Origin: an uncultured virus (IMG/VR IMGVR_UViG_3300016472_001095)
Lineage: Duplodnaviria; Heunggongvirae; Uroviricota; Caudoviricetes
Length of the DNA stretch: 20,000 bases
Virus record (IMG/VR): IMGVR_UViG_3300016472_001095
Strand: one strand, 5' to 3'
A model generated the notes under the pieces. The model did not search any database. It was not told where the DNA came from and was given only the letters and a program-made list of their open reading frames with translations. This document shows, in pieces, positions 3,333 through 17,155 of the stretch (positions within the stretch are counted from its first letter, which is position 1; each line of letters begins with the position of its first letter). A program made the position numbers and the translations under genes.

Positions 3333-3367
3333 TTATACTTTATTATTATTATTAAATGAAGGGAGGT
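3319..3367 (+). promoter_or_regulatory. Sigma70-type promoter and strong Shine-Dalgarno
   Basis: TTGATC(3319-3324)-N16-TATTAT(3341-3346); GGAGGT at 3362-3367, 9 nt before ATG 3377. Confidence 0.65.
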
Positions 3368-3376
3368 AAGAATATA

Positions 3377-3580
3377 ATGAGTGATATCAATTACAATAGC
3401 CGCGATCTCCGTCCGAAGACGTTCTTCGTCAAGATCGAACGCAGCCGTAATGGCCAGTTCACAGTTAAGCGCGCCAAGTTGCTCGAGCAGTCTAATCAGT
3501 TTGCTCGTTCCATCCGTCGCGTGGACGCTCGTGATCTAACCCGTGCAATTAACCGCACTGGTGGTCTTAACGTTGCCTAA
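3377..3580 (+). CDS. Small Arg-rich protein with GC-rich codon usage
   Basis: Start moved from 3356 to ATG 3377 because of the SD; 67 aa with 11 Arg, all CGY codons; about 52% GC by hand count. Confidence 0.85.
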   Translation: MSDINYNSRDLRPKTFFVKIERSRNGQFTVKRAKLLEQSNQFARSIRRVDARDLTRAINRTGGLNVA

Positions 3581-3596
3581 TTTTAACGTTGAAATT

Positions 3597-3635
3597 AGAG
3601 CGCCGTTACTCTTTGAGTGCGGCGTTCTTTTTTTT
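3597..3635 (+). terminator. Rho-independent terminator
   Basis: agagcgccg-tt-actc/ttt/gagt-g-cggcgttct hairpin followed by a T run. Confidence 0.85.
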
Positions 3636-3651
3636 GTTCAAGAGAATTTAC

Positions 3652-3679
3652 TTGTACTGTCTAAATTATCAACTATAAT
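3652..3679 (+). promoter_or_regulatory. Sigma70-type promoter
   Basis: TTGTAC(3652-3657)-N16-TATAAT(3674-3679)-N6-ATG. Confidence 0.75.
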
Positions 3680-3685
3680 ATTTAA

Positions 3686-3985
3686 ATGCTTAACAAAGAT
3701 GAAATAAATGCCAGGCTTAAAAAAAGTTTACAAGGCAAAACACCTAAGCTAAAATGCCTAGTTACTGGATTAGAGCGGCTTACGAGCTCAGATTATTTAA
3801 AAACTAAAGAAGAAAAATTTGGATCTATTAAAAATTATCTAGATAACTATATTAGTAGAGAAGCAGTGAAGCTTCTTAAAGAAAAAAGATCGGTTATTGA
3901 TATTAAAAATGAATTAAACCCTAATGGAGATTTTATACCTTGTGAATCAGCCATTAATGAGGCAAAAAAATATTATGAAATATAA
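3686..3985 (+). CDS. Hypothetical protein, paralogue of 16713-17039, possible C-terminal HTH
   Basis: TPKLKCLVTGLERLT...NYISREAVKLLKEKRSVIDIKNEL aligns by eye with the 16713 protein. Confidence 0.85.
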   Translation: MLNKDEINARLKKSLQGKTPKLKCLVTGLERLTSSDYLKTKEEKFGSIKNYLDNYISREAVKLLKEKRSVIDIKNELNPNGDFIPCESAINEAKKYYEI

Positions 3986-4193
3986 AGAACCCCCCTTTCC
4001 TATCGGTTTAAAAAAACCTAAGATAGATTTACCTCCAGAAAAACTTCGTAATCGTTTTGGCCGCATGGTTTATGGTCATAAGACCGCAGGGGCTATTGAA
4101 GTAATGACTAAAGAGTGTTGGGACAGTAATAAGAAATATTTTGTTCCAAATGGAGCAAGAAGCTGTGTAAAGAATTTTTCAAAAGTTACTTGA
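3975..4193 (+). CDS. Hypothetical protein
   Basis: Likely start ATG 3975 (MKYKEPPFP...), which minimises the overlap with the upstream gene. Confidence 0.65.
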   Translation: MKYKEPPFPIGLKKPKIDLPPEKLRNRFGRMVYGHKTAGAIEVMTKECWDSNKKYFVPNGARSCVKNFSKVT

Positions 4194-4218
4194 CCTGTAT
4201 TTAAATTTCATTTATATT
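4190..4218 (+). promoter_or_regulatory. Sigma70-type promoter
   Basis: TTGACC(4190-4195)-N17-TATATT(4213-4218)-N5-ATG. Confidence 0.65.
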
Positions 4219-4223
4219 AAATT

Positions 4224-4484
4224 ATGGAAAAAATATATTATTGTTCAGTATCAGGTGAACCTCTTCCAGGTTCTAGAGTAGAAGCACTTAAAATGTTAGG
4301 TATTCCTGAAAATATGTGGACTGCTGTTAAACATAGTAAGATTAGACGTAATAAAGGCATATATTTTGGCGAACAAGGTTCGGGTAAATTAATTATCGCT
4401 TCTAAAATTTATTCAGATAATATCTCAAACCTGGATGAAGCGCTTACGGAGCAAGAAAAGCGTGACAAAACGTTGGCGAGTTAA
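4224..4484 (+). CDS. Hypothetical protein with degenerate DksA/TraR-like N-terminal motif
   Basis: CSVSGEPLPGSRVEAL...P resembles CxxCGxxIPxxRLxAxP but retains only one Cys. Confidence 0.55.
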   Translation: MEKIYYCSVSGEPLPGSRVEALKMLGIPENMWTAVKHSKIRRNKGIYFGEQGSGKLIIASKIYSDNISNLDEALTEQEKRDKTLAS

Positions 4485-4773
4485 AACAGGCACTATAGAT
4501 ATTGTTGGCGTAGAAGCTGACAACCCTATGGAAGCTGCAACAAAAGTTTTTGATCAATTAAAAGAAGACGCTAAAGTAGAAACAGAAAATAGACTTTTTA
4601 GAATCGGGGTTGTAATTGAATGTAGTGATATAGATAGATGTAGGCAAGATCCAGCCAATAATACCTTTTATGTTTTATCTTCAAAAGTTCTAGCTAATGC
4701 AGGGCTGCATAGTCTATGCAAAGATATGGAAACATTTATGAAGGAGAATATTGATGAAGAGGAAAGACTATAA
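4435..4773 (+). CDS. Hypothetical protein
   Basis: 112-aa ORF in a coupled run; start uncertain (GTG 4462 is an alternative). Confidence 0.75.
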   Translation: MKRLRSKKSVTKRWRVKTGTIDIVGVEADNPMEAATKVFDQLKEDAKVETENRLFRIGVVIECSDIDRCRQDPANNTFYVLSSKVLANAGLHSLCKDMETFMKENIDEEERL

Positions 4774-5032
4774 CGAAGTAACAAATAAGATAGTTTCTGT
4801 TGAACAAGTATTATCTAGAGGCAATAGAGTGCCTTCTATAGAGCTTGTGTTTAAAACAGACGGTTTTAATAGAGTGGGAGGGCACAAGGTTTATATAGAT
4901 TTTAAATGTGCAAAAGAATTATTAGAAAAATTAAAGGTTGAAACCACATCTATTGAATCTAAATATTTTCCGGGTGAGTACTATGATAAACTTACAAAGC
5001 CCCTCGAAACGCTGCTTTTCAACAGAGATTAG
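4751..5032 (+). CDS. Hypothetical protein
   Basis: 93-aa ORF; AAGGAG at 4741-4746 upstream. Confidence 0.75.
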   Translation: MMKRKDYNEVTNKIVSVEQVLSRGNRVPSIELVFKTDGFNRVGGHKVYIDFKCAKELLEKLKVETTSIESKYFPGEYYDKLTKPLETLLFNRD

Positions 5033-5036
5033 TAAG

Positions 5037-5258
5037 TTGGATTTAGATACCTTAATAGACAGACAAAAAGATATAGAGAAATACCTTGAGTATGGTTTTT
5101 GCTCAACGTGGATGGTTTTTAAAGAGGGTAAAGGTATTTTTAGTTTAAAATATTGGGATTCTTATGATATAATGAGATATCAAAGGCTGTTAATGATGGA
5201 ATTGTTAGATAGATGTAAAAAATTTGACTTATATCCAAAAATAAAATTTTATTTTTAA
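5037..5258 (+). CDS. Hypothetical protein
   Basis: Frame of track ORF 4938-5258; in-frame TTG 5037 chosen to avoid a 95-nt overlap; start uncertain. Confidence 0.55.
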   Translation: MDLDTLIDRQKDIEKYLEYGFCSTWMVFKEGKGIFSLKYWDSYDIMRYQRLLMMELLDRCKKFDLYPKIKFYF

Positions 5259-6532
5259 ATTCTTCCCATATTCCAATACGTCTTACCACCTATTACAGCT
5301 GAGACCTCATCACTATAAGTTGAATACGGGAGAATAATAGTAGAGCTCAAAGGCGGATTTGCGCTTCTTGATTCACCTTTATAAGCCGATACAAAAAACA
5401 TATTAGAAATATTATCTATTCTACATGCAAGCCCATAATTAAGAGAGGCATTACCTGCATGAAGAAGCCCAACTATCTTCCACGCACTTGTTTCTGGGTT
5501 TGTAGAATTTACGCATCCATAAACAAAAGAACCAGAGTCGCCTCCGGAAGCTACGTAGACATCAGTTGTCGGGCTATCAAATTGAATCATATCTATAAAA
5601 TAAAGTGTATATGAACCAAAATTAATATTTCCGTTTACCGAATTTGCAGTAATTCTTATATCACAACTTCCGTTTCCAACGGGACCTAAAGTTCTACCTG
5701 ATCTAAATAAAGGATCGTTAAGCGTTAAACTGTTTATTTCACTTGTAGTTGCAAAATCTGGGGGCGTATTAAATGGAGCGCACAAAGGATACCAACAAGT
5801 ATTATCTACCACTGTATTGTTAAGATTTATTAATGCAGTATCTATTATATTGTTACCTACATCTCTAAAAGGCATTGCTCTCTTAAGGGATCCTATAAGA
5901 TGTGTTGTACTATTTACCGTGGGGTAAGTGTCCCAAGAACTGGGACTATAAAAACTTACATTACTATAAGCACTAGCCTTTGCACCAAATGTAGAATCGC
6001 TTGTGATAGTAAATGGCAGACCGGCTTGAGGATCTGTGCCTCCCGCAACAGCTCCAACATGACAATTGGTCATTCCTACTATAGCTCCATCCATCATATC
6101 AACCACCATTCCTCCTAAGGTGCCTGTTCCAACAAACCCAGATTGAGGGGGGGTTCCGCCTGACATGCCTCCGCTAAGAGGTCTACTAAATGATCTATTA
6201 GATCTTACAGGTTCTGGAGCCAATGGCATAGGAACAGCAACTGCTCCTGAATCATTACAATAAGAAGGCATTGCCTCGTTAATACCAACAATTTCGTAAA
6301 CATCCGTTTCAATTTGTTCACCGTCTAAATCAATAATTTTTGGAATAATTTTAGAAGAATCTAGTTCATTAAGAGGTTTTTTAGATTTAACTCCAAACCT
6401 AAGACATTTCTTATCTGTTAAAATACCATTAGTGCTTTTATATCCAAGGCCTGTTTCAATAGCATCATAGCCGTTATTTCTAAATAACGATATAGCATAT
6501 TCTCTAGCTTTTTGTAGTGTTATTTCATTCAT
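5255..6532 (-). CDS. Trypsin-like serine protease (PA clan, Nal1-like) with N-terminal pro-domain
   Basis: GTLGG...MTNCHV (His), IDTALI (Asp), GGDSGS (Ser), IVGLLHAG; N-terminal GLGYK..NG......LRFGVKSKKPL.EL....IIP...ETDVYE. Confidence 0.88.
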   Translation of the reverse strand: MNEITLQKAREYAISLFRNNGYDAIETGLGYKSTNGILTDKKCLRFGVKSKKPLNELDSSKIIPKIIDLDGEQIETDVYEIVGINEAMPSYCNDSGAVAVPMPLAPEPVRSNRSFSRPLSGGMSGGTPPQSGFVGTGTLGGMVVDMMDGAIVGMTNCHVGAVAGGTDPQAGLPFTITSDSTFGAKASAYSNVSFYSPSSWDTYPTVNSTTHLIGSLKRAMPFRDVGNNIIDTALINLNNTVVDNTCWYPLCAPFNTPPDFATTSEINSLTLNDPLFRSGRTLGPVGNGSCDIRITANSVNGNINFGSYTLYFIDMIQFDSPTTDVYVASGGDSGSFVYGCVNSTNPETSAWKIVGLLHAGNASLNYGLACRIDNISNMFFVSAYKGESRSANPPLSSTIILPYSTYSDEVSAVIGGKTYWNMGRI

Positions 6533-8159
6533 AAGTTACAAATAAAACACCTTGCCCGGGAGCTATAACATTTGGTGATGAAGATGTGATAGTCGGTGTA
6601 GGTGTAGGTGTAGGAGCCGGGCATATACCTTCAATTATTACAGGAGCGGGGTTATAGCCGGGATCGTAAGATACCCACCCCTCTTGAGGTGGTACACTGC
6701 TTTGAGAGTTATTATAATAATAAATATTAAACATTGGATATCCGCGGATATACCAAGTGCCTGATACTCTGACAATCTGATAACTACCAAAAGGATCTAC
6801 TGAATACCAATAATATTCTCTACCAAAATAGGAAAGATTGACTTGTGCTACCCCGGCTCCAGTAACACAATAATAGCTTACAGGTGTGATTGAAGGTGTT
6901 GGGGTGTTTGTAGGTGTTTCTGAATGCGTAGGCGTGTTAGTAGGTGTTTCTGATGGCGTAGCAGTATTGGAAGGTGTAATAGAAGGAGTAATTGTATTAG
7001 AAGGTGTGACGGAAGGTGTAACCGTAGGAGTAGGTGTTTTAGTAATATAGTTTTCAACTTCATCAAAATTTTCAATTATAAAAATAGTTTGAGAGGGCGT
7101 GGGAGTTACCGTGGGGGTATTTGTTGAAGAAGGTGTTATTGTAGAAGTAGGTGTTTCTGTAGGTGTATGGGTTGGCGTTCCCGTGGGTGTATCCGATGTT
7201 GTAGGTGTATGTGTTGGTGTTTCCGTAGGAGTAAGCGTAGGTGTCTCTGAAGGTGTAACTGTAGAAGTTGGTGTTTGTGAGGGGCAAGGTCCCGTGTAAA
7301 GTATAATTGATGAAGGTTCAAATATATCTACCAAGAGCCAATTAGTTGAGGGCGCTTCGAACGGGTATTGAATTGAAGTGGTATTTATATAAATTAAAAA
7401 TCCAAGATAAAAAATTGACCAATACCCATCTATCTGTTTATATTCTAAAGACCAACCGTTTTCATTTTCATAAAGAGTATCAGGAAGAGATACTGCAAGA
7501 TTTCTTACATAGTTTCCATTAGCATCACCGAACTCACAGTTAGTAATACAATAATTAGAAGGATAAAAGGGTGTTACTGTAGGGGTAGGAGAGGGCGTTG
7601 TTGTTGAAGTCTGCGTTATCGTCACTGTCGGTGTTACAGTTACTGTGGGAGTAGGCGTTTCAGTTGGAGTAAAAGTAGGAGTTACAGTTGCAGTAGGTGT
7701 TTCTGAAGAAGTAACTGTAGGAGTAGGTGTTTCCGTAGGTGTTTCCGTAGGTGTTACAGTAGGCGTTTTAGTATTAGTAGGTGTAACTGTTGTAGTGGGA
7801 GTAATTGTAGGAGTGAATGAAGGGGTGACAGTTACCGTTGGTGTCTGTGTAGATGTTACAGTTGCAGTAGGTGTTTCAGAGGATGTTATTGTGGGGGTAG
7901 GTGTTATTGTTGGTGTGGCTGTAGGTGTTTCCGTTGGTGTTTCTGTAGGTGTTACAGTAGGCGTTTTAGTATTAGTAGGTGTAACTGTTGTAGTGGGAGT
8001 AATTGTAGGAGTAGGTGTTCTCGTATGGGTAGGTTCTATAGTTTGTGTAGGAGAGTGAGAAGGAGTTTGAGTTGGCGGAAAACTAAAACCTACTCTAGAA
8101 CTTGCGCCTGCTAAAAGCCTGGTTCTGTAGGATAAGTGTCTCACCGATTTCATAAACAA
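6525..8159 (-). CDS. Pro/Thr/Ser-repeat protein with two small Tyr/Trp-rich domains (putative virion surface protein)
   Basis: Long (T/S)PTx tracts separating YCITNC...ANGNY...GPCP and YCVTGAG..QVN...PPQEGW...PAPV..GICP; TAAATA at 8166-8171 (minus); start is TTG 8159 or ATG 8153. Confidence 0.85.
7131..7257. repeat. 127-nt repeat, copy 1 (copy 2 at 12173-12299)
   Basis: Manual alignment gives 6 mismatches and no gaps. Confidence 0.9.
7747..8012. repeat. 68-nt exact direct repeat (7747-7814 and 7945-8012)
   Basis: gtaggtgttacagtaggcgttttagtattag...gtaggagt occurs twice, offset 198 nt. Confidence 0.9.
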
Positions 8160-8190
8160 TGTAATTATTTATTAAATACGGTGTTATGTA

Positions 8191-8460
8191 TCAATAAACG
8201 TAAATAACTCTATGAAGCTTCTTTTTATCAGGAAATTCTATTTTTATTTCATAATACCCGGTTTCTTCTCTCACTATAACCTCTTCATATGTACCTAAAG
8301 ATTTTGAACTCTCAAAAACCGTTTTTGCATAATCTATTGCCTCAGATTCTGTCAAATCTGAAGCATGTACTATATTAGATCCATTACTCTCATGCAACAC
8401 AGTAATACCATCACTATCAAAAACTTCACTATATTGATCATAAGAACCTACCTTTTTCAT
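8191..8460 (-). CDS. Hypothetical acidic late protein
   Basis: Start moved to ATG 8460, which lies 5 nt after TAAATA (8466-8471). Confidence 0.8.
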   Translation of the reverse strand: MKKVGSYDQYSEVFDSDGITVLHESNGSNIVHASDLTESEAIDYAKTVFESSKSLGTYEEVIVREETGYYEIKIEFPDKKKLHRVIYVY

Positions 8461-8468
8461 AATTTTAT

Positions 8469-9155
8469 TTATCTCCAAGCATTATATGCAGAGAGAAAGT
8501 TAAAATAAAAATTGTTTTCATTATCTGGAGTAGTATTAGTACCTCCGCAGAAGAATTCAATTTGATCTACTGATAAATTACCATCTCCGGAAACGAGATT
8601 TACAGTTAATGCTGAGCCTGGACCTGTTCCAATTTGCTGTACAATAACAGTACCGGTAGTAGATGTTATTCTTCTATAATCAATATGAAACCCGTATCCT
8701 GCAGGATTATAGCTAAAAGTACCTGATACATTTACATACCCTTGGGTAGGAGTAAAGTACTCAAATTTATCACCTGCTATTTGAAATAAAAATTTGATTT
8801 GATTTGGGCTATCTGTGTTAGTTAAATATTTTACTCCTTTTGCTCCATTTCTATAATTAGCCCCTATTCTTACTACTGCTGTACCCCCTACCATTAAAGG
8901 AGATCTTAATGATCTATATGCACGAGCAAAGTTGTTAGTACCTTCCCCGTACATTCCAAAAGAATGACCGCTAGGTGTACTGGGAAGCCCGGTTATTATG
9001 TTACTATTGGGGGTAGATGCATAAGGAGGACCATTAAAAAACCCCACACTACTGTTACTACCTTCCTCAGCACTAGACCAGTTTTGATATCCTATCCCCC
9101 CGCTTGCAGGATCTGCAAACAAGCCGGTACCAGTATTATTATCTTCCCATGGCAT
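8469..9155 (-). CDS. Single-domain beta-rich protein homologous to two domains of 9167-12964
   Basis: SFGMYG...RAYR....L.VG......ANYRNGAKG...IEFF...ENNFYFN; TAAATA at 9161-9166, 5 nt before ATG. Confidence 0.85.
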   Translation of the reverse strand: MPWEDNNTGTGLFADPASGGIGYQNWSSAEEGSNSSVGFFNGPPYASTPNSNIITGLPSTPSGHSFGMYGEGTNNFARAYRSLRSPLMVGGTAVVRIGANYRNGAKGVKYLTNTDSPNQIKFLFQIAGDKFEYFTPTQGYVNVSGTFSYNPAGYGFHIDYRRITSTTGTVIVQQIGTGPGSALTVNLVSGDGNLSVDQIEFFCGGTNTTPDNENNFYFNFLSAYNAWR

Positions 9156-9166
9156 ATAATTATTTA

Positions 9167-12100
9167 TTAATAATAGTAGCTTACTCCGTTAAAAAAGAAG
9201 TTATTAAGTACATAAACGCTTTCTGTATTTTCCACATAAAAACTAATACCGCCTACAACACCAGTTTTTTGTACTGTATATATTTCAGATCCTCTAGAAA
9301 TACTAACATTTATTAGATTTGATGTTGGCCTGTATGCAGATAGTAAAAATACTGATAGTTGGTCATAAGCCCAGCCAAGAGGAATACCATCTAAATAATA
9401 TTCATTATTAGATGTTTCAAAATTTACTAAGAAATCAGTACAACTTGAATTTTGCCATAAATTGACACCTTTCTTTCCGTTTCTATATGCTATTGCCATA
9501 TTTGCAGACAATGAGAACCCTACACCCATAGGAGTATTTGGTGATGAATAGTATTGAAACCCTCTAAACGCTTCTACCTTATTGTTATTTTGATCCCATG
9601 CTTTTAAAAACCAGGCATACTTTGTACTTCTAGCGGGATCACGCAACGCTATATCACCCATTTTTTCAGGATCAAAATTCAATGTAGGATCTCCTATTCC
9701 CTGACTGCTATTATTAACATAACTAAAGTTCCATGGTAAAAAGTTAGTAGGAACATATGGAAGAGCTGGATTTATAAATTGTTTATTTGGATTTGCTCCT
9801 TGAACAAAATAAGGACCCCAAAGTTCTGGATTATTATTTGCAGAGTATGATCTAGCATCATCATATCCCATGTACGCGGGTGAAACAGTAGGGGTAACAG
9901 TTGGTGTGGTTGTAGGCGTTTCAGTAGGAGTAGGCGTTTCAGTGGGTGTTACTGTTGGTGTTACAGTAGGAGTCGGTGAAGGTTCAATAATTTGGTAATC
10001 TCTTGCAGCAAGAGTTGAATTTATTTGTAACGCATGCCACCCCGATACGCTATATTCAAATGTGCCCCATCCTAATTGAGTATTAGGCATTCTTATTTCT
10101 TTTAGCGAGGTAGACCCGGCTTGTAAGCTATAAACATTAAACGGACTAGATGTTATATTATAATGTAATATAAATTCATTATTTTTAAATATTACTTCAT
10201 TAGATAAAATATCAAAATTATTACCTGGAAGCTGTACGTTATAAAAATTCCAATTTATACCATCTATAGAAGAGAGTAACTTGTTGTATGTTAATGCCAT
10301 TACAAACTTATTATCTCCAAATGTAAGATTTTCACCATTACTAAGAAATGCAGTATAGTCGGATAGAGGAGATGTTGAAGTAATATATGTATCTACCCAG
10401 TTTATTCCATCATTAGAATTTAGTACTACAGGAACACCATAATTATTATTTGCAATAATAACATATTTGTTATTTCCATAATCAATATCTAAGCTTTTTG
10501 TCTTTACAGATAAAGGTAGGGTAAAGGTAAACCAGTTTTGAGCATCTAGCGAATAACATACCCTATCAGAATCGCCAATTACAGAGGTATCTGTTGAGTG
10601 AGTGGCGCCTACAAAAGCGTAATATATACCATTTACATATCTTAATTTATCATAGACAACACTAAGAGGGAGTGCAATTGTTGACCACTCATTGTTTTGA
10701 TATTTCACCAATACATTATAATAGCTAAATTTAGTAGTATAATTAACTGGGGCTAAAAGTAATTTATCTGAATTTGCTAATATTGAAGAATAACCAGTAA
10801 ACTTATCACCTGATAATGTAGGGTAGGTTAAGTAGTAATTATACCCATCAATTGAGGATAGAATTGTATTGAATGAAATAGTTTGTGATTGTGCTGCAGC
10901 GTATAATACTCCCGTACTATCACAATAACCTAAATAGTCAGGATTTATTATTATTCCGTCAACATAACTTGGTAGCCATGTTTCAATATTAGGCGTTACT
11001 GAAGGTGTCACAGTTAAAGTAGGTGTTTGCGAGGGGGTAATATAAGGTGTAGTAGTTGAGGTATTTGTCGGTGTTAATGTGGGGGTTGGAGTAGAGGTTG
11101 GTGTAGGTGTATTAGTGGGAGTAATTGAAGGTGTTTGCGAGGGGGTGAGAGTAGGTGTTACGGTAGGAGAAGAGGTTGTTGAAGGAGATGGTGTAGGGGA
11201 AGGCGGAAGAATATTAAGCGGATAATATGATATTCCATTAAAATAAAGATCATTTAATCCACCTGTTGGTGATTCTGTTCCGCTTATATAGAATTTTATA
11301 CTTCTTACAGTAGGTATTGGACCTAAATATGTAACGAATATTCTATGATTACGATTATCATTAGTTCTTGTTATACTATAAAAAATATCATTAGTACTTG
11401 GTCTGTAGGCTGAAAGAACAAATACTGAGGTTTGAATATAAGGCCACTCTAAATTAACTATACCACTTCCAACACTAAATGTATATTGATCCCCCCCTAC
11501 ATTAAAGTAGCACAGCTCTGAAGCCGCAGAAGGTGTTTCAGAAGAATAAAGAGCAATTCCTTTATTTCCATTTCTAAATGCAGCTGCGCAAGTAGCAGAT
11601 AATGACTGTCCAACTGCTAAACCAGTACTGAAAGGTCTAATTACATCACAAAACACTCCAGGGTTCACAGGAGAAGAATTTGCATAAATTCCAAATGCTT
11701 TATTACATGGAGATGAATCTACATTTCCATAATTAGAAGCCTGGCTACTAGCAATAAAGCTACCTGAATAAGAGATTCCTGGTTGCGCGTTTACTAAAGA
11801 CCATGGTTTAAATCCGCTATTAGGTAATGGGTAGCCCTGTGAACCTTCGTTTAATGAAATAAACGTCAAACCATAATTACAGGTATCATCATACCCAGCA
11901 TTTATAGTACCAATAGGTGAAACGGTAGGAGTAAGCGTAGGTGTGGCTGTTACCGTTACCGATGGTGTTACAGTTGGAGTATTTGTTGGTGTTTCAGTCA
12001 CCGTTTCTGATGGAGTCGTAGTAGGTGTTATTGTAGAAGTAGGTGTTTCTGTAGGTGTATGGGTTGGCGTTTCCGTAGGAGTAAGCGTAGGCGTTTGTGT

Positions 12101-12964
12101 TACAGTTTCTGAAGGAGATGCAGTTTGAGTATTTGTTGGTGTTTCAGTCACCGTTTCTGATGGAGTCGTAGTAGGTGTTATTGTAGAAGTAGGTGTTTCT
12201 GTAGGTGTATGGGTTGGCGTTTCCGTGAGTGTCTCCGATGTTGTAGGTGTATGAGTTGGTGTTTCCGTAGGAGTAAGCGTAGGCGTTTCTGAAGGTGTAG
12301 GTGTGGGTGTTTTAAGCTTTGTTGTAGTAGGAGTTGCAGTCACCGTTTCAGTTGGGGTAATTGAAGGCGTAGTAGTGTTAGATGGTGTATTAGACGGGGT
12401 AGATGTAGGTGTTAATGTTACAGAAGGCGTATTGGTTCTAGTAGGAGTTTGAGTTAATGTTACTGTAGGTGTAGATGTTTTAGTTATTGATGGTGTTACA
12501 GTGTTAGTATTTGAAGGTGTAGTTGTTGGCGAAATTGTTATAGAGGGTGTCAAGCTAGGTGTAATTGCGGGGGTGGGAGTGGGGGTAGCGGTTCTAGTTA
12601 GAGTGGGTGTTAAAGTCGGTACAGGAGGTAATAAGTTGCCATCAATTAGATAATTTTTATCTGAAAGTTTGGTATACCCCGCAGCATCCATAATTATTAT
12701 GTCATATATACCTGGATACAACAAATCATAAACATGTACATTAAGTTTATTATTGCTAGAAATGGTATAGTTATCGTACAAAAACCCTGTAAAATCAGCA
12801 AATGAGGCAGATAGTTTGCTATTGTAGTTAAAGGTTATTGTTGTTAAAGAATAAGTAGTAGATAAATTATTGGTACTTAAAAATATATTACTTGTGTAGT
12901 TAAAGTTATAACCTTTAAAAAACACCGTTGTCGTTGCAGCAGGAAAGTAAGTAATATAGTTCAC
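9167..12964 (-). CDS. Modular adhesin or fibre-like protein: Ig/IPT-like N-terminus, PT linkers, two RNGxKG domains, Asp-box (BNR) repeat domain
   Basis: KGYNF...[13 protein letters not shown] at the N-terminus; AFRNGNKG and AYRNGKKG domains; SLDAQNW, SNDGINW, SIDGINW repeats; GTG start 8 nt after TAAATA (12973-12978). Confidence 0.85.
11977..12226. repeat. 100-nt exact direct repeat (11977-12076 and 12127-12226)
   Basis: Identical text at a 150-nt offset within the PT linker. Confidence 0.9.
12173..12299. repeat. 127-nt repeat, copy 2 (copy 1 at 7131-7257)
   Basis: See copy 1; encodes [21 protein letters not shown]...[16 protein letters not shown] in both proteins. Confidence 0.9.
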
Positions 12965-13013
12965 GTACTAATTATTTATTGATTTTTTTTGTAAATACGT
13001 CTATTATTATTAC

Positions 13014-13166
13014 ATGAGCGCAGGAAAAGGTGACAAATATAGACCCGTAAAACGTAAAGTATTTGATAATAATTATGACCAAATCAACTGGTTAAGCAAA
13101 GAGCAAAACAAAGAGATTCGAAACTACACGGTAAAAAAAGGTAAGAAGATTTATAGGTATCCTTGA
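13014..13166 (+). CDS. Small basic hypothetical phage protein (50 aa)
   Basis: Below the track cut-off: MSAGKGDKYRPVKRKVFDNNYDQINW...; promoter TTGATT(12979)-N17-TATTAT(13002)-N6-ATG. Confidence 0.8.
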   Translation: MSAGKGDKYRPVKRKVFDNNYDQINWLSKEQNKEIRNYTVKKGKKIYRYP

Positions 13167-13167
13167 T

Positions 13168-13251
13168 GCGCAAGTGGCGAAATGGCGAAACGCAAGGGAC
13201 TTAAAATCCCTTACATTAGAAACACTGTGGGTTCGAGTCCCACCTTGCGCA
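13168..13251 (+). tRNA. tRNA-Leu(UAA)
   Basis: GCGCAAG/CTTGCGC acceptor, AGGGA-CTTAAAA-TCCCT anticodon arm, GTGGG-TTCGAGT-CCCAC T arm; CCA not encoded. Confidence 0.92.
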
Positions 13252-13257
13252 TTTATC

Positions 13258-13285
13258 TTGCACTAATTTAAAAGTCCTTTATACT
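13258..13285 (+). promoter_or_regulatory. Sigma70-type promoter
   Basis: TTGCAC(13258-13263)-N16-TATACT(13280-13285)-N6-ATG. Confidence 0.75.
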
Positions 13286-13291
13286 TACGTT

Positions 13292-13585
13292 ATGGATATT
13301 GAATACCTTTTAGAACAGATTGAGTTTCATAATTCAAGCTATGAATGGATTGTAAGGGAATCTGAAAAAGTAGCATTAGAATTGAAAAAGCTTGATAAAC
13401 AAAAGAACTTTGATGCAGATGCTTACGAGGTGGTTGTAAAGCGGTTTATGGAGCTAGATAGCCGTTATAAGCGTAATAAAAAAGAATATGATGATATTGT
13501 TTCTAAAGTAAGAGAATATTTTAACGATAAACACGGTATTGATATTATTGGAATTCTTGATGGTAATGAGGATAATGCTAAATGA
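13292..13585 (+). CDS. Hypothetical helical protein
   Basis: 97-aa charged ORF with its own promoter. Confidence 0.8.
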   Translation: MDIEYLLEQIEFHNSSYEWIVRESEKVALELKKLDKQKNFDADAYEVVVKRFMELDSRYKRNKKEYDDIVSKVREYFNDKHGIDIIGILDGNEDNAK

Positions 13586-13710
13586 AACCTACAATTATAA
13601 TTTGGTCTTTAGTTATTATTGCTATTATTTTTATTAGTAGGGTTTGTAACTTTACTCCTCAAGAAGATACTGATAACCCTAACCGCCCTTATGTGGCAGG
13701 ATGTCCGTGA
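13582..13710 (+). CDS. Small single-pass membrane protein (42 aa)
   Basis: ATGA overlap with the upstream stop; MKPTIIIWSLVIIAIIFISRVCNFTPQEDTDNPNRPYVAGCP. Confidence 0.65.
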   Translation: MKPTIIIWSLVIIAIIFISRVCNFTPQEDTDNPNRPYVAGCP

Positions 13711-13742
13711 ATAGGGTTGTTCGAATACGATAGGAGGTTTAT

Positions 13743-13834
13743 GCCTCCGTCGTCTAGTGGTCAAGACACTCGGCTTATACCCGTGCTCGGCGCCAGATTA
13801 GCGCAAAACGTTGGTTCGAATCCAACCGGAGGTA
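13743..13834 (+). tRNA. tRNA with UAU anticodon (Ile by anticodon) and a long variable arm
   Basis: GCCTCCG/CGGAGGT acceptor, GTCT/AGAC D stem, CTCGG-CTTATAC-CCGTG anticodon arm (one U-U mismatch), 24-nt variable region, GTTGG-TTCGAAT-CCAAC T arm. Confidence 0.85.
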
Positions 13835-13843
13835 AGTTTAGAC

Positions 13844-13920
13844 GTGCCTGTAGCTCAATTGTCTAGAGCAGCGCTCTTCTAAAGCGCAGGTTGCAGGTTA
13901 GATTCCTGCCAGGCACGCCA
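13844..13920 (+). tRNA. tRNA-Arg(UCU)
   Basis: GTGCCTG/CAGGCAC acceptor, GCGCT-CTTCTAA-AGCGC anticodon arm, GCAGG-TTAGATT-CCTGC T arm, encoded CCA. Confidence 0.9.
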
Positions 13921-13933
13921 TATATAATATGTT

Positions 13934-14020
13934 GGACAGATGGCTGAGCGGTTTAAAGCGTCCGCCTTGAGAGCGGAAGAGGTTTAAAAGCCTCCGTGGG
14001 TTCAAATCCTACTCTGTCCG
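13934..14020 (+). tRNA. tRNA-Ser(UGA)
   Basis: GGACAGA/TCTGTCC acceptor, TCCGC-CTTGAGA-GCGGA anticodon arm, paired long variable arm, G73. Confidence 0.93.
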
Positions 14021-14030
14021 AATTCCGAAT

Positions 14031-14112
14031 TCCTAGGTGGCGGAATGGTAGACGCACCGGACTGTAAATCTCTTGGCTTACGCCTTCAGTGGTTCGAATC
14101 CACTTCTGCCCA
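14031..14112 (+). pseudogene. Chimeric pseudo-tRNA (Leu-type 5' half, Tyr(GUA) 3' half)
   Basis: D arm, variable arm and T arm each pair internally, but acceptor (TCCTAGG/TCTGCCC) and anticodon (CCGGA/TCTCT) stems are mismatched. Confidence 0.75.
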
Positions 14113-14120
14113 CTATTTAC

Positions 14121-14128
14121 TATAAATA
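14121..14128 (+). promoter_or_regulatory. T4-type late promoter TATAAATA
   Basis: Exact T4 gp55 consensus, 5 nt before ATG 14134. Confidence 0.85.
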
Positions 14129-14133
14129 TTTAA

Positions 14134-15264
14134 ATGGCCGATGTCAAGATATCACAGCTGTCTACTAAAACAGATTTAGCCACAACGAATTATATACCTA
14201 TTTCAGATAATACAACTACCACAAAAATAGGAACTGATAGTTTATTTGGTTTTAGAAATAAAATCATTAATGGTGATATGCGTATTGATCAACGAAATGC
14301 AGGAGCTGCATTAGTAGTTAATCCACCTTCTACAGCAGTATATTCTTTAGATAGATGGGGAGTAAGAATTACTAATTCAAACACCGCCTCACCAAATTCA
14401 CTATATGCACAAAGGGTTGCAGGTGATATTAGTTCTCCTTACGCGATAAGATTATCTAAAATATCTGGTACCTCTACAGGTCAAATTGCTATATTACAGC
14501 CATTTGAAAGTATTGAAAGCACTCCTCTTGCTGGAAAAACTGTAACATTAAGCTTTAGAGCTCGCAAAGGCAGTTCATTCACAGGAGCAGGCATAAACAG
14601 TACTGCTACTCCGTCTGTTCAAATATTCTCCGGAACAGGAACCGATCAAACATTAGAACAAGCATATCAAGCAGGATGGGCAAATCAAAATTATTTTTAT
14701 AATACCAATACAGGGAGTGTTTTAAACGGCACGTTAACAACTTCTTTTTCTCTTTTTATAGCAACAGGAGTAGTTCCTTCAAACGCTACTCAAATAGGAG
14801 TACAAATTGGGACGGGATTATTTTCGTCTGCTACAGGAGATTCAAATAACTATCTTGATATAGCTGATGTACAACTTGAAGTAGGTTCAACAGCAACCCC
14901 TTTTGAGCGAAGACCTGTTGGTTTAGAATTAGCGTTATGTCAAAGATATTATATAAATTATGATGCAGGACCCGGGCCGCTAGGAGCGCTTTATTTAGGA
15001 GCACATTTCTTAAACGGTAATACACAAACTACATCTGTATCATTTCCTGTTACAATGAGAACGTCTCCTACTCCAGGTTGGGGTACCCTCGCAGGGGTTT
15101 GGTGGAACGGAACTAATAGCTCACAATTAAACGCAACCTCTCCATTTAGTCTTATAATTACTTCTCCTATGAATTTTCAAATTGGCACAACTGGTAATCC
15201 AGGCAATATAAGCCCAGCTATTATAAGGCTTTATGGTGCATGTAACTTTTCTGCAGAATTATAA
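14134..15264 (+). CDS. Tail fibre-like protein with carbohydrate-binding-type domain
   Basis: FRNKIINGDMRIDQR...YSLDRW...VQLEVGSTATPFERRP.G.ELALCQRYY, a motif set typical of aquatic phage fibre proteins; N-terminus MADVKISQL. Confidence 0.8.
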   Translation: MADVKISQLSTKTDLATTNYIPISDNTTTTKIGTDSLFGFRNKIINGDMRIDQRNAGAALVVNPPSTAVYSLDRWGVRITNSNTASPNSLYAQRVAGDISSPYAIRLSKISGTSTGQIAILQPFESIESTPLAGKTVTLSFRARKGSSFTGAGINSTATPSVQIFSGTGTDQTLEQAYQAGWANQNYFYNTNTGSVLNGTLTTSFSLFIATGVVPSNATQIGVQIGTGLFSSATGDSNNYLDIADVQLEVGSTATPFERRPVGLELALCQRYYINYDAGPGPLGALYLGAHFLNGNTQTTSVSFPVTMRTSPTPGWGTLAGVWWNGTNSSQLNATSPFSLIITSPMNFQIGTTGNPGNISPAIIRLYGACNFSAEL

Positions 15265-15291
15265 CAGTTGTAATTGAACAATATTTTTTCA

Positions 15292-15297
15292 TAAATA
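15292..15297 (+). promoter_or_regulatory. Late promoter core TAAATA
   Basis: 5 nt before ATG 15303. Confidence 0.75.
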
Positions 15298-15302
15298 TTT
15301 AA

Positions 15303-16028
15303 ATGGTAGAATTAGAGTTTACAGGGGGTAGATTGGGAGATAGAATGTTTGAATATGCATTTGGAAGAATAATAGCTGAAAACCTTGGATTTGCTTATAA
15401 ACCTAAAATGGATAGTAATTTTTTAACTCCTTTTAATTTAACAGAAGTACCTGGAGAGATTTATGATGAACCAGTTCAAAATGTTTGCGGAAGACAAACA
15501 TATGAATATAATTTGCTTAATAAGATTTGTGAAAATAAAGAAAAAAGAAAAATAAGAATTCAAGGTTTTTTTCATTTATATGAATACTATAAAGATTATA
15601 TGCATAAAATAAAACAGTGGTATAGGTTAGAACCGAAAAAAGAATTAATAAAAAACGCAGTGGGCGTTCATATAAGAAATACAGATTACCCTATTGAATG
15701 GAGAAATAAGCCCGAATATTATATAGAAATTCTTAAAAAAGAATCTCCTGAAAAAATTTATATTACATCAGATGAACATGGCCATGAATCAGTTCAAAAT
15801 ATATTGAACAATTTTCCTCAAGCAGAAATATATAATAACCCTTGCGCTTATGGAACTATGTCGGACTTCTCTCAATTAAAAACTCTTATACTCAGTAATG
15901 GGAGTTTTAGCTTTTGGATGGGTATATTGAGTAATGCTGAAAAAATATATGGTCCTAGTAACTGTGTTATACCTAAATATATAGATCTTATTGTATATGA
16001 TGATAGTAGGTATAAATATCTAAAATGA
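15303..16028 (+). CDS. Glycosyltransferase family 11 (alpha-1,2-fucosyltransferase-like)
   Basis: GGRLGDRMFEYA, IQGFF, VGVHIRNTDY, ILSNGSFSFW occur in GT11 motif order. Confidence 0.8.
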   Translation: MVELEFTGGRLGDRMFEYAFGRIIAENLGFAYKPKMDSNFLTPFNLTEVPGEIYDEPVQNVCGRQTYEYNLLNKICENKEKRKIRIQGFFHLYEYYKDYMHKIKQWYRLEPKKELIKNAVGVHIRNTDYPIEWRNKPEYYIEILKKESPEKIYITSDEHGHESVQNILNNFPQAEIYNNPCAYGTMSDFSQLKTLILSNGSFSFWMGILSNAEKIYGPSNCVIPKYIDLIVYDDSRYKYLK

Positions 16029-16642
16029 TTATAGATTTAAAAACAGTGTTACAAGAAAATAGTATTATTCCTAAAGGGGTTATACATGTGGGTGGTTATA
16101 ATGGTGAAGAAATTTTTGAATATAAAGATTTAGGCATTAATAATATGGCGATTTTTGAGCCTCAAAAAAATTTATACGAGCAAATCCTGTTAAAAAAAGG
16201 ATTAGACGAGAATATATTAGCTTATAACTTTGGACTGGGGTCAAAAACAACAAAGCAAAAAATGTATAAATCTATAAACTTTGAAGCAGCTTCTTCTTTT
16301 TTACAGCCTAGTAAAGTTTTATCTCTTTACCCCGGTCTTATATTTGAAGAAACACTAGAAGAATTTGAAATACATAAAATGGATGATGTTATAAAAAACA
16401 AGAATCTATATAACATTTTAAATATAGATGTTCAAGGGTTTGAGCTAGAAGTATTAAGAGGCGGAGAGGAAACTTTAAAAAATATTGAAGTAATAATTTG
16501 CGAGGTAAATAGGGATTATTTGTATAATAATAATGCTCAAATACATGAAATAGATGAATTTTTATCTGCATTTAAATTTAAAAGATTGATAGTCAACTGG
16601 ATAGGCGATCTATGGGGTGATGCTTGTTATATAAAATGTTGA
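16025..16642 (+). CDS. FkbM-family SAM-dependent methyltransferase
   Basis: VIHVGGYNGEE, IFEP, LNIDVQGFELEVLRG, ICEVN, WGDACY; ATGA-coupled to the GT11 gene. Confidence 0.92.
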   Translation: MIIDLKTVLQENSIIPKGVIHVGGYNGEEIFEYKDLGINNMAIFEPQKNLYEQILLKKGLDENILAYNFGLGSKTTKQKMYKSINFEAASSFLQPSKVLSLYPGLIFEETLEEFEIHKMDDVIKNKNLYNILNIDVQGFELEVLRGGEETLKNIEVIICEVNRDYLYNNNAQIHEIDEFLSAFKFKRLIVNWIGDLWGDACYIKC

Positions 16643-16675
16643 TAATCAAGATATAAAAATATTTCAAAAAAATAG

Positions 16676-16703
16676 TTGACTGTTCCGCATTTTCAGCCAT
16701 AAT
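16676..16703 (+). promoter_or_regulatory. Sigma70-type promoter
   Basis: TTGACT(16676-16681)-N16-CATAAT(16698-16703), 9 nt before ATG 16713. Confidence 0.7.
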
Positions 16704-16712
16704 ATATGGACA

Positions 16713-17039
16713 ATGAATAGCACATTGCTAGAACCGACGGTTCGCAAGAACCCGGCCAACCGAGAGGGCGCCGCCAAGACCTCTCGCGAGGTGACCCCTC
16801 GCTTGGTTTGTATTATCACCGGTAAGTCCCGTCTTACCAACGCCAAGTACTTGGCTTCGAAGCCCCAGGGTTTCGTGACTAACTATATCAGCCGCCCGGC
16901 CCTCAAGCTCTTGCGCGCTGGTAAGAACGTCCAACAGGTTCGTTCCGAGCTTGGTGTGACGGAATCCCTTCCGGCGATTACCGATAGCGCCCTCCAGAAC
17001 GCTATCAAGATCAACGGTAAGTGGTCCAAACAGAGCTAA
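16713..17039 (+). CDS. GC-rich basic protein, paralogue of 3686-3985, possible HTH
   Basis: TPRLVCIITGKSRLT...NYISRPALKLLRAGKNVQQVRSELG; about 57% GC by hand count; own promoter and terminator. Confidence 0.88.
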   Translation: MNSTLLEPTVRKNPANREGAAKTSREVTPRLVCIITGKSRLTNAKYLASKPQGFVTNYISRPALKLLRAGKNVQQVRSELGVTESLPAITDSALQNAIKINGKWSKQS

Positions 17040-17084
17040 TTAATTTAGCTTAAGAAGAGCCTGAGATAACAATAATATAACAAC

Positions 17085-17137
17085 GAAATCCCGTACCGAG
17101 TTTAGCTCTTCTTATCGGTACGGGATTTCTATTTTTT
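17085..17137 (+). terminator. Rho-independent terminator with a 15-nt loop
   Basis: Perfect 15-bp stem GAAATCCCGTACCGA(17085-17099)/TCGGTACGGGATTTC(17115-17129), followed by TATTTTTT. Confidence 0.85.
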
Positions 17138-17155
17138 AGATAATATAATAAAACT

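Follow-up and report, generated by a model that had tools for sequence, protein, structure and literature searches.

Two small GC-rich phage genes, one of them with an AT-rich paralogue, as candidate high-output cassettes in a separate codon dialect

The window analysed here, a stretch of 20,000 nucleotides (nt) from IMG/VR record IMGVR_UViG_3300016472_001095, is phage DNA with a GC content of 0.35. Its source is an uncultured large phage that is T4-related and whose relatives reach about 230 kb. Four transfer RNAs (tRNAs) are encoded in the window, along with tail-fibre-like proteins, proteins with Pro/Thr repeats and a block of small genes that look early. We deal with two paralogous genes in it, one AT-rich and one GC-rich, with a second GC-rich gene, called the 3377 gene after the position of its ATG, and with the four tRNAs. 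An original prediction, made from the DNA alone, had seen in the paralogues a codon-timed hand-over between two putative helix-turn-helix (HTH)-like regulators, one translated at once on host tRNAs, the other dependent on the tRNAs of the phage. The genes in question are:

3686..3985, plus strand: AT-rich paralogue, 99 amino acids, GC 0.28, GC content at third codon positions (GC3) 0.18
16713..17039, plus strand: GC-rich paralogue, 108 amino acids, GC 0.56, GC3 0.70
3361..3580, plus strand: second GC-rich gene (the 3377 gene), 67 amino acids, basic product, GC3 0.57, share of A-ending codons 0.06
13167..14021, plus strand: tRNA array (ARAGORN, Rfam)
13167-13252, plus strand: Leu-taa
13742-13835, plus strand: Ile-tat
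13844-13920, plus strand: Arg-tct
13933-14021, plus strand: Ser-tga

That 3686-3985 and 16713-17039 are paralogues, as had been concluded from a shared sequence motif, was confirmed by BLASTP, which aligned the two products across this motif with 25 identities in 59 positions (42%, E 2e-15). The two proteins are unlike at both termini, N and C, and a 6-residue insert sets them apart as well. Their codon styles are far apart: 0.43 of the codons of the AT-rich paralogue end in A versus 0.06 of those of the GC-rich paralogue. Among the 31 open reading frames (ORFs) tabulated for the window only 16713-17039 (0.70) and 3356/3377-3580 (0.55-0.57) are GC3-rich, the remaining 29 having GC3 values of 0.14-0.31. 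The GC-richness of the GC-rich paralogue is limited to its coding sequence (0.56 versus 0.24-0.34 in the flanks).

ARAGORN and Rfam agree on the four intact tRNAs, and the anticodons of these (taa, tat, tct and tga) read exactly TTA, ATA, AGA and TCA. As predicted, none of these four codons occurs in the 175 codons of the two GC-rich genes (108 plus 67, the 3377 gene counted from the ATG at 3377), for which the probability by chance is 4.7e-19, computed from the genes' own Leu, Ile, Arg and Ser content and the synonymous shares of the window background. Also as predicted, the AT-rich paralogue uses all four (TTA 4, ATA 3, AGA 2, TCA 2; total 11). With 11 tRNA-matched codons per 100 versus a window median of about 10, the AT-rich paralogue simply has genome-average codon usage. 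The absence from the 175 codons is in turn one aspect of a wider tendency of the GC-rich genes to avoid codons ending in A, as seen when 734 codons from five copies of the GC-rich paralogue and three copies of the 3377 gene were pooled:

Gly: GGT 28, GGC 7, GGA 0, GGG 0
Arg: CGC 32, CGT 30, CGA 5, CGG 4, AGA 0, AGG 0
Ala: GCT 33, GCC 24, GCG 6, GCA 3
Val: GTT 24, GTG 19, GTC 6, GTA 1
Lys: AAG 54, AAA 10
Ile: ATC 31, ATT 13, ATA 0
Asp: GAT 17, GAC 6
Tyr: TAT 10, TAC 3

AAC, TTC and CAG are favoured too, and just 7-11 of the approximately 108 codons of each GC-rich paralogue copy have A in the third position. The rule of this dialect is the shunning of A-ending codons, not maximal GC. From general knowledge of bacterial codon bias we take it to resemble a translationally preferred codon set rather than the signature of a GC-rich donor.

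In IMG/VR seven contigs carry a full-length orthologue of the GC-rich copy (86-91% identity); an eighth, with a 33-residue piece of it, was left out of the count. All seven orthologues have a GC content of 0.51-0.53, a GC3 of 0.54-0.63 and not a single TTA, ATA, AGA or TCA. The AT-rich copy is located 6.8-11.5 kb upstream of the GC-rich copy in contigs L001, L006 and L007 and is also found in the 69-kb contig G001. Both copies are thus kept together, with the contrast in codon style held, in 4 of the 4 relatives whose contigs reach far enough; the three contigs without the AT-rich copy end 1.9-7.2 kb upstream of the GC-rich copy and are uninformative. In L006 and L007, which have a higher background GC3, the AT-rich copy tracks the background at 0.47 and the GC-rich copy stands above it at 0.63. 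The 3377 gene is present and GC-rich wherever the contig of a relative reaches. A distant lineage (L020-L023, of which L020-L022 are nearly identical to each other) contains a family member that is 48-55% identical to the GC-rich copy, has a GC3 of 0.59-0.66 versus 0.19-0.41 in its neighbours and again uses none of the four codons. The prediction was to fall if the GC-rich copy proved to be a recent acquisition absent from relatives; it was found in 7 of 7 relatives as well as in the distant lineage.

Substitutions were counted after Nei and Gojobori between the window and three relatives, with 20 window genes having an orthologue. The proportion of synonymous differences (pS) of the GC-rich copy, 0.43-0.45, was the lowest of all genes compared, and that of the 3377 gene, 0.51-0.61, the second lowest against two of the three relatives. 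The other genes gave values of 0.54-1.06, which means that for almost all of them the synonymous sites are near or beyond saturation. At the protein level the nonsynonymous distance (dN) was 0.04-0.10 for the GC-rich copy versus 0.27-0.28 for the AT-rich copy. Both paralogues are under purifying selection, the AT-rich copy evolving 3-6 times faster, and the codon contrast is old and maintained by selection.

Within the GC-rich copy synonymous variation is unevenly distributed. In the first 26 codons (16713-16790), which encode a predicted disordered N-terminus, 5 of 26 are synonymously variable versus 14-17 of 25-26 in the later quarters. These codons include the otherwise rare CGA and CTA and hold two conserved hairpins, CGAGAGG-N12-CCTCTCG and GCGAGG-N5-CCTCGC, the second followed by a T-rich run.

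What the dialect might be for is best seen in the relative G006, which is rated complete (229,717 bp, GC 0.353). For its 320 ORFs of at least 50 amino acids the medians are 0.27 for GC3, 0.32 for the A-ending share and 9.7 for the tRNA-matched codons per 100; the lowest A-ending shares of all 320 are those of the 3377 orthologue (0.08) and of the member of the paralogue family (0.09). The only large gene of G006 in the dialect class of these two small genes is that of the major head protein (phrog_138, E 7.6e-84), with a GC3 of 0.49, an A-ending share of 0.17 and 1.4 tRNA-matched codons per 100. In relative synonymous codon usage the head protein and the two small genes are correlated with each other (Spearman 0.56, p 3e-6, 59 codons), whereas neither correlates with the background codon usage of G006 (0.01 for the head protein, -0.15 for the two small genes). 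The gp32-like single-stranded DNA-binding protein leans to the dialect more weakly, with 4.0 tRNA-matched codons per 100; a KaiC/DnaB-like ATPase has 3.6, and the gene that immediately precedes the head gene, and for which no family match was obtained, has 2.8. Since a late head protein avoids the tRNA-read codons, the dialect is not a mark of translation before the phage tRNAs are made, and it is best read, from the codon counts, as following expression level rather than timing.

The two GC-rich genes, 13 kb apart, are single-gene cassettes, each furnished with its own signals. Those that bear on the pair are:

16665..16703, plus strand: promoter of the GC-rich copy (A-tract, TTGACT at 16676-16681, 16-nt spacer, CATAAT at 16698-16703)
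17040..17140, plus strand: 3' untranslated region (UTR) and intrinsic terminator of the GC-rich copy (stem 17085-17099 / 17115-17129, 15-nt loop, T-run)
3598..3637, plus strand: intrinsic terminator of the 3377 gene; the promoter of the AT-rich copy follows directly
3652..3679, plus strand: promoter of the AT-rich copy (TTGTAC, 16-nt spacer, TATAAT)

The A-tract, the -35 and the -10 element of the GC-rich copy are invariant in 8 of 8 loci, the DNA further upstream being variable; with 9 nt between the -10 element and the ATG the leader would be very short or absent. For the AT-rich copy TATAAT-N6-ATG and TTGT at -35 are kept in 5 of 5 loci, and its mRNA looks leaderless. Both paralogues thus have a -10 element 5-9 nt before the start and no Shine-Dalgarno sequence, the arrangement by which putatively leaderless genes were recognised. 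The 3377 gene is different: together with the head gene of G006 it is an exception in having a strong Shine-Dalgarno sequence (GGGAGGT at 3361-3367, 9 nt before the ATG). In relatives its terminator has a conserved stem, both arms of which carry changes, and a T-run comes next. For the terminator of the GC-rich copy the folding energy is -29.4 kcal/mol (z -5.6), and 4 of its stem pairs show compensatory changes across relatives. Its unusually large loop of 15 nt is invariant in 8 of 8 loci, and 10 of the loop bases form the complement of a conserved 10-mer located some 50 nt further upstream, within the 3' UTR (17049-17129); a pseudoknot or an alternative pairing is possible there.

Most genes of the window lack a Shine-Dalgarno sequence and fall into two types by what precedes them. 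In the early, sigma-70 type TTGACn, a 16-17-nt spacer and TAnnnT are followed by the ATG 5-6 nt on; in the late type the ATG follows about 5 nt after ATAAATA, a motif found before the tail-fibre-like and other large genes. We take the latter to resemble the late promoter of T4-type phages. By these motifs both paralogues would carry early, sigma-70-type promoters. A -10-like element 5-6 nt before the start was observed, for example, at 2791, 3138, 3686, 4224 and 17156, and further such starts are at 6525, 8469, 9167, 14134, 15303, 16025, 17374, 18081 and 18452, which suggests that leaderless or near-leaderless mRNAs are widespread in this phage and come in two promoter classes.

With the genes sorted into the two classes by crude motif rules, and with the two GC-rich families excluded, the tRNA-matched codons per 100 were:

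G001: early-type 5.9, late-type 9.1, p 0.0009
L001: early-type 8.6, late-type 12.1, p 0.008
L006: early-type 3.0, late-type 5.3, p 0.11
window: early-type 10.8, late-type 10.1, p 0.96

The comparison of codon usage by promoter class, which had been proposed as a check, thus gave a mixed picture, with a clear difference in two relatives, G001 and L001, a non-significant one in L006 and none in the window itself. Timing may therefore play a part in the lineage, but a weak one, and in the window it is absent.

From this we consider the chances somewhat better than even that the genes 16713-17039 and 3377-3580 use the high-expression dialect of the lineage as cassettes of maximal output, the AT-rich paralogue being an ordinary-level, faster-evolving relative. 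The phage has an AT-rich genome with tRNAs for A-ending codons, in which very few genes are selectively held in a separate dialect. As this dialect is common, in G006, to the head protein and, more weakly, to the single-stranded DNA-binding protein, it would represent the translationally optimal codon set. Both cassettes are self-contained: that of the GC-rich paralogue joins its A-tract and a sigma-70 promoter close to consensus to putatively optimal codons and a strong terminator, and that of the 3377 gene has a strong Shine-Dalgarno sequence, putatively optimal codons and a terminator of its own. The two products are therefore most likely among the most abundant proteins of the phage, made early with the RNA polymerase and the tRNAs of the host; the AT-rich paralogue is an old family member in the ordinary dialect, presumably with an ordinary output. 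High abundance, early timing and DNA binding are what we infer for these proteins. Two marks of the genes of a high-expression class were found here, namely a bias confined to the coding sequence and under synonymous selection, and a match in codons to the major capsid gene, the latter in G006. Four points weigh against so simple a picture. The comparison with the head protein was made in the relative G006 and not in the window's own genome. The bias of the two small genes exceeds that of the head protein, which need not follow from expression level alone. In G001 and L001 the early genes carry fewer tRNA-matched codons, and timing may therefore contribute. And the synonymous constraint at the 5' end of the GC-rich copy points to an additional signal at the RNA or DNA level just past the promoter.

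The proposal of maximal output overlaps with an explanation that puts timing and robustness before amount and that we regard as unlikely, though less so than the others considered here: the two GC-rich genes could be independent of the tRNAs in question and be translated at once in any state of the host, before the phage tRNAs have been made or when rare tRNAs are depleted. Their complete lack of the codons read by the four phage tRNAs, their early sigma-70-type promoters and the lower load of such codons in the early-type genes of G001 and L001 fit this. That the late head protein of G006 shuns the same codons does not fit, nor does the equality of early and late genes in the window; most early genes, the AT-rich paralogue included, are full of tRNA-matched codons, and in L006 and L007, which keep two of the tRNAs only, the GC-rich copy still avoids A-ending codons. 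A related thought, which we hold to be quite improbable, is that the paralogue family serves as a built-in gauge of translation capacity: one copy would be made at full rate whatever the tRNA supply, the output of its sister copy or copies would report the supply of tRNAs for A-ending codons, whether from phage or host, and the ratio of the two related, putatively DNA-binding proteins would set the progress of infection or help to cope with hosts that deplete rare tRNAs. GC-dialect members do occur with AT-dialect members in two phage lineages, and in L001 the GC-rich copy is found beside the tRNA array. The hand-over originally predicted, in which interchangeable regulators would succeed each other, the GC-rich one first on host tRNAs and the AT-rich one once phage tRNAs are available, appears to us still less probable than the gauge. 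It is true that both copies lie side by side in the window and in the relatives that reach far enough, that members of both dialects coexist in the second lineage too, and that the anticodons match the codons by which the copies differ. Against this, the clades of the two copies are not sisters, their dN values are 3- to 6-fold apart, the different termini and the insert make interchangeability doubtful, and the dialect is common to a late structural gene. Moreover, both copies have early-type promoters, and since the AT-rich copy carries the genome-average load of tRNA-matched codons, every gene would be gated like it and nothing about the gating would be specific, which leaves the hand-over unsupported.

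Two explanations do without translation. In one, selection acts on the RNA, the GC-rich and A-poor coding sequence giving a more structured or nuclease-resistant mRNA with a longer life. The coding sequence of the GC-rich copy does fold better than shuffled sequences (z -3.2), its first 26 codons are nearly free of synonymous change with the rare CGA and CTA inside conserved hairpins, and the 3' UTR with the terminator loop is conserved. But a structured RNA within the coding sequence was rejected, as there is no net covariation in it (term +1.44) and many pairs in the 3' half break in relatives; the only clear compensatory run is that of the four terminator-stem pairs, next to three isolated pairs in the coding sequence changed on both sides. 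The preference for GGT over GGC and for GCT over GCG suits decoding better than stability, and the head gene has the same dialect. As the general cause RNA-level selection is accordingly about as improbable as the hand-over, if marginally less so; at the 5' end of the GC-rich copy it may add to the selection for output. The other explanation, a recent import from a GC-richer genome that has not yet drifted to the composition of the phage, is largely refuted and by far the least probable of all. The genes are sharply distinct in GC, and in L001 the GC-rich copy is the neighbour of the tRNA array, as might be expected of an import. Yet the GC-rich copy is equally GC-rich in all seven relatives and in the distant lineage, its synonymous sites are conserved rather than drifting, its flanks, promoters and terminators are AT-rich and phage-like, and its codon choice is not GC-maximal. 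Nor did a scan of 185,579 bacterial and archaeal genomes with one peptide pattern reveal a relative of the paralogue family.

That codon bias tracks expression level in phages is an already known principle. In the study of Lucks et al. (Lucks 2008, PMC2266997) the head and tail genes of many phages are described as biased to host-preferred codons. The present phages are similar to those of that account in that a minority of genes deviates from the background in GC3 and codon choice and that the head protein, in G006, is among them. They differ from what is described there in that the extremes are two tiny, uncharacterised and apparently early genes rather than head or tail genes, and in that one of the extreme genes has same-genome paralogues in the background dialect. 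With the head protein of G006 taken as a proxy, the dialect would be the one optimal for the host.

A partition of codon usage between early and late genes, in connection with phage tRNAs, was reportedly described for T4 by Cowe and Sharp in 1991. A later survey of 14 phages found such a partition in 50% of them (Mioduser et al., 2017, PMC5683454). Like T4, the present phages have an AT-rich, T4-like genome with tRNAs for A-ending codons, and in two relatives the late genes carry more of these codons than the early ones. Unlike in the T4-type partition, the two classes are equal in the window, the two GC-rich genes are single outliers, and a late gene uses the same dialect. A further case is the infection of Synechococcus WH5701 by phage Syn9, for which it was shown that UUA- and AGA-rich phage proteins are not made when Leu-TAA and Arg-TCT are scarce (Zborowsky et al., 2025, PMC11726456). 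The anticodons Leu-TAA and Arg-TCT are the same as here, and genes free of the corresponding codons would escape that block. Unlike here, the case is one of host resistance to a marine cyanophage, without a paralogue pair and without dedicated codon-free genes; also unlike that cyanophage case, psbA was found in 0 of 5 relatives of the present phage.

Codon usage thus flags two tiny genes as the probable top-expressed products of widespread uncultured large lake phages, and with a bias stronger than that of the major head protein they are priority targets for functional study. The paralogue set is in addition a natural experiment with the same fold in two dialects within one genome; recoding of the pair could test translational selection, the role of the phage tRNAs and host tRNA depletion directly.

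The protein family to which the paralogues belong is large. Its profile gave 158 clusters at an E value of at most 0.001 among 1.84 billion representatives. Neither paralogue (P0001, P0002) matched a Pfam or PHROG family, nor any HTH family at E values up to 1, and 28 of 30 scanned family representatives had no Pfam or PHROG family above threshold. The other two of the 30 are multi-HTH repeat proteins that were matched at profile positions 62-84; these proteins, P0098 (465 amino acids) and P0102 (887 amino acids), consist of 8-9 tandem HTH units with hits to dozens of HTH families and are unrelated to the window. With hhalign a stretch of the type LKLLRxGKxVxEVRxxLG was found with a probability of 61%. 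The AlphaFold2 (AF2) model, with a mean predicted local distance difference test score (pLDDT) of 75 and a core at about 85-92, has a beta-hairpin followed by three helices. In a wide VIA-align search the TetR N-terminal domain, GerE and a small terminase came up at Z scores of 2.1-2.6, which is weak and at noise level. Foldseek against the PDB returned nothing below an E value of 2.9, and BFVD returned unnamed family members only. A match to FolD in a PDB sequence search with the family profile was dismissed as chance-level, and leads from the protein atlas were set aside with scores of 0.94, below the recognition threshold. Some family members have basic, low-complexity tails.

The designation of the paralogues as HTH-like regulators therefore survives in part: fold, profile and hhalign all give a weak HTH signal, while a significant match to an HTH family and a regulatory function did not emerge. 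HTH-like is a lead, not a finding. With HTH proteins such as those of the homeodomain-like HTH_23/HTH_28 type, the TetR N-terminal domain and GerE the modelled family may have its three helices in common, and its best fold matches, weak throughout, are to HTH domains, but these proteins have no counterpart of the conserved T-P-x-L-x-C-x-x-T-G-x-x-R hairpin. In a maximum-likelihood tree, whose backbone is unresolved and in which two rows are cut imprecisely, two groups come out as monophyletic without being sisters, the AT clade (support 100/100, stem 1.53) and the GC clade (96/99). G006 and G007 each have one GC-dialect member and two AT-dialect members with a Cys-rich tail, G007 additionally one of intermediate dialect; the coexistence of the dialects within the family therefore recurs. 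A search of the open-access literature and bioRxiv yielded no account of the family, nor of paralogous phage genes written in opposite codon dialects.

The product of the 3377 gene is very strongly conserved (97 clusters, 66-100% identity) and is a candidate for a very abundant protein, judging from its codons and signals. It matched no Pfam or PHROG family; a PDB sequence search with its family profile and a protein atlas search with the product gave nothing, and its AF2 model has a pLDDT of 64, too low for a confident fold. Among the phages in GenBank no match was obtained with the window by megablast, with P0002 by tblastn or with the 3377 product.

As to the host, a ferredoxin-dependent bilin reductase is encoded in 3 of 5 contigs of relatives, and the exonuclease of the relatives has its nearest counterparts in Synechococcus phages and an OM43 phage. 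The bilin reductase and the likeness to Synechococcus phages spoke for a cyanobacterial host, which was not adopted, as psbA is absent from all five relatives, the complete one included. A second scan of bacterial and archaeal genomes gave no match to the bilin reductase of the relatives. Freshwater phages with genes of the bilin pathway are known, and alpha- and gammaproteobacterial hosts are discussed for them (PMC11480375).

Relatives, too, carry the four-tRNA set of the window, usually with Asn-gtt and Tyr-gta in addition. By alignment with L001 the window retains a trace of these two:

~14022..14112, plus strand: remnant of tRNA-Asn(gtt) and tRNA-Tyr(gta), fused by deletion

L001 has the two tRNAs in intact form, with the GC-rich copy's promoter straight after them. 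The corresponding region of the window (14022-16642, remnant included) has three genes between the tRNAs and the GC-rich copy, all with upstream motifs of the late type: they encode a tail-fibre-like protein, a glycosyltransferase and an FkbM methyltransferase. In other relatives the same slot has different cargo, e.g. Gly-rich proteins in L004.

The class II build of tRNAs is normally reserved in bacteria for Leu, Ser and Tyr. The Ile(tat) tRNA at 13742-13835 has it as well: it is 92-94 nt long, with a variable arm of about 21 nt and an A73 discriminator, and this length is kept in every relative that holds the tRNA (L001-L007, G006). A recoding of ATA by this odd tRNA(UAU) was considered and rejected: of 150 ATA positions compared with orthologues, 67 align with ATT or ATC, 28 with ATA and 24 with Leu codons. 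Because ATA is mostly aligned with ATT or ATC, it probably still stands for Ile.

In G006 a 3-kb block at about 217-220 kb (loci L044-L045) has a GC content of 0.45-0.47, intergenic DNA included, and several more GC3-rich small genes lie near it at about 224-225 kb. One gene of this region has an HExxH motif and matches phrog_6361. The block looks like foreign DNA, unlike the bias of the two GC-rich families, which is confined to coding sequence.

Of the neighbouring genes in the window one adjoins the AT-rich copy directly:

3975..4193, plus strand: downstream gene, overlapping the end of the AT-rich copy by 11 nt

Because of this overlap the gene and the AT-rich copy are probably co-transcribed. 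Its product has 86-90% amino acid identity to those of relatives (dN 0.08-0.12) and is better kept than the AT-rich copy. Farther away, the large proteins encoded at 2-673, 6525-8159 and 9167-12964 (minus strand) have long Pro/Thr (PT) repeat linkers, which give rise to a strong GC skew and, on the other strand, to spurious ORFs. The one with 1265 amino acids matches phrog_15511. The small ORF 763-981 narrowly matches the C-terminal toxin-binding domain of Xre/MbcA/ParS antitoxins, with 25.5 bits versus a Pfam cut-off of 24.5 bits (E 1.3e-5).

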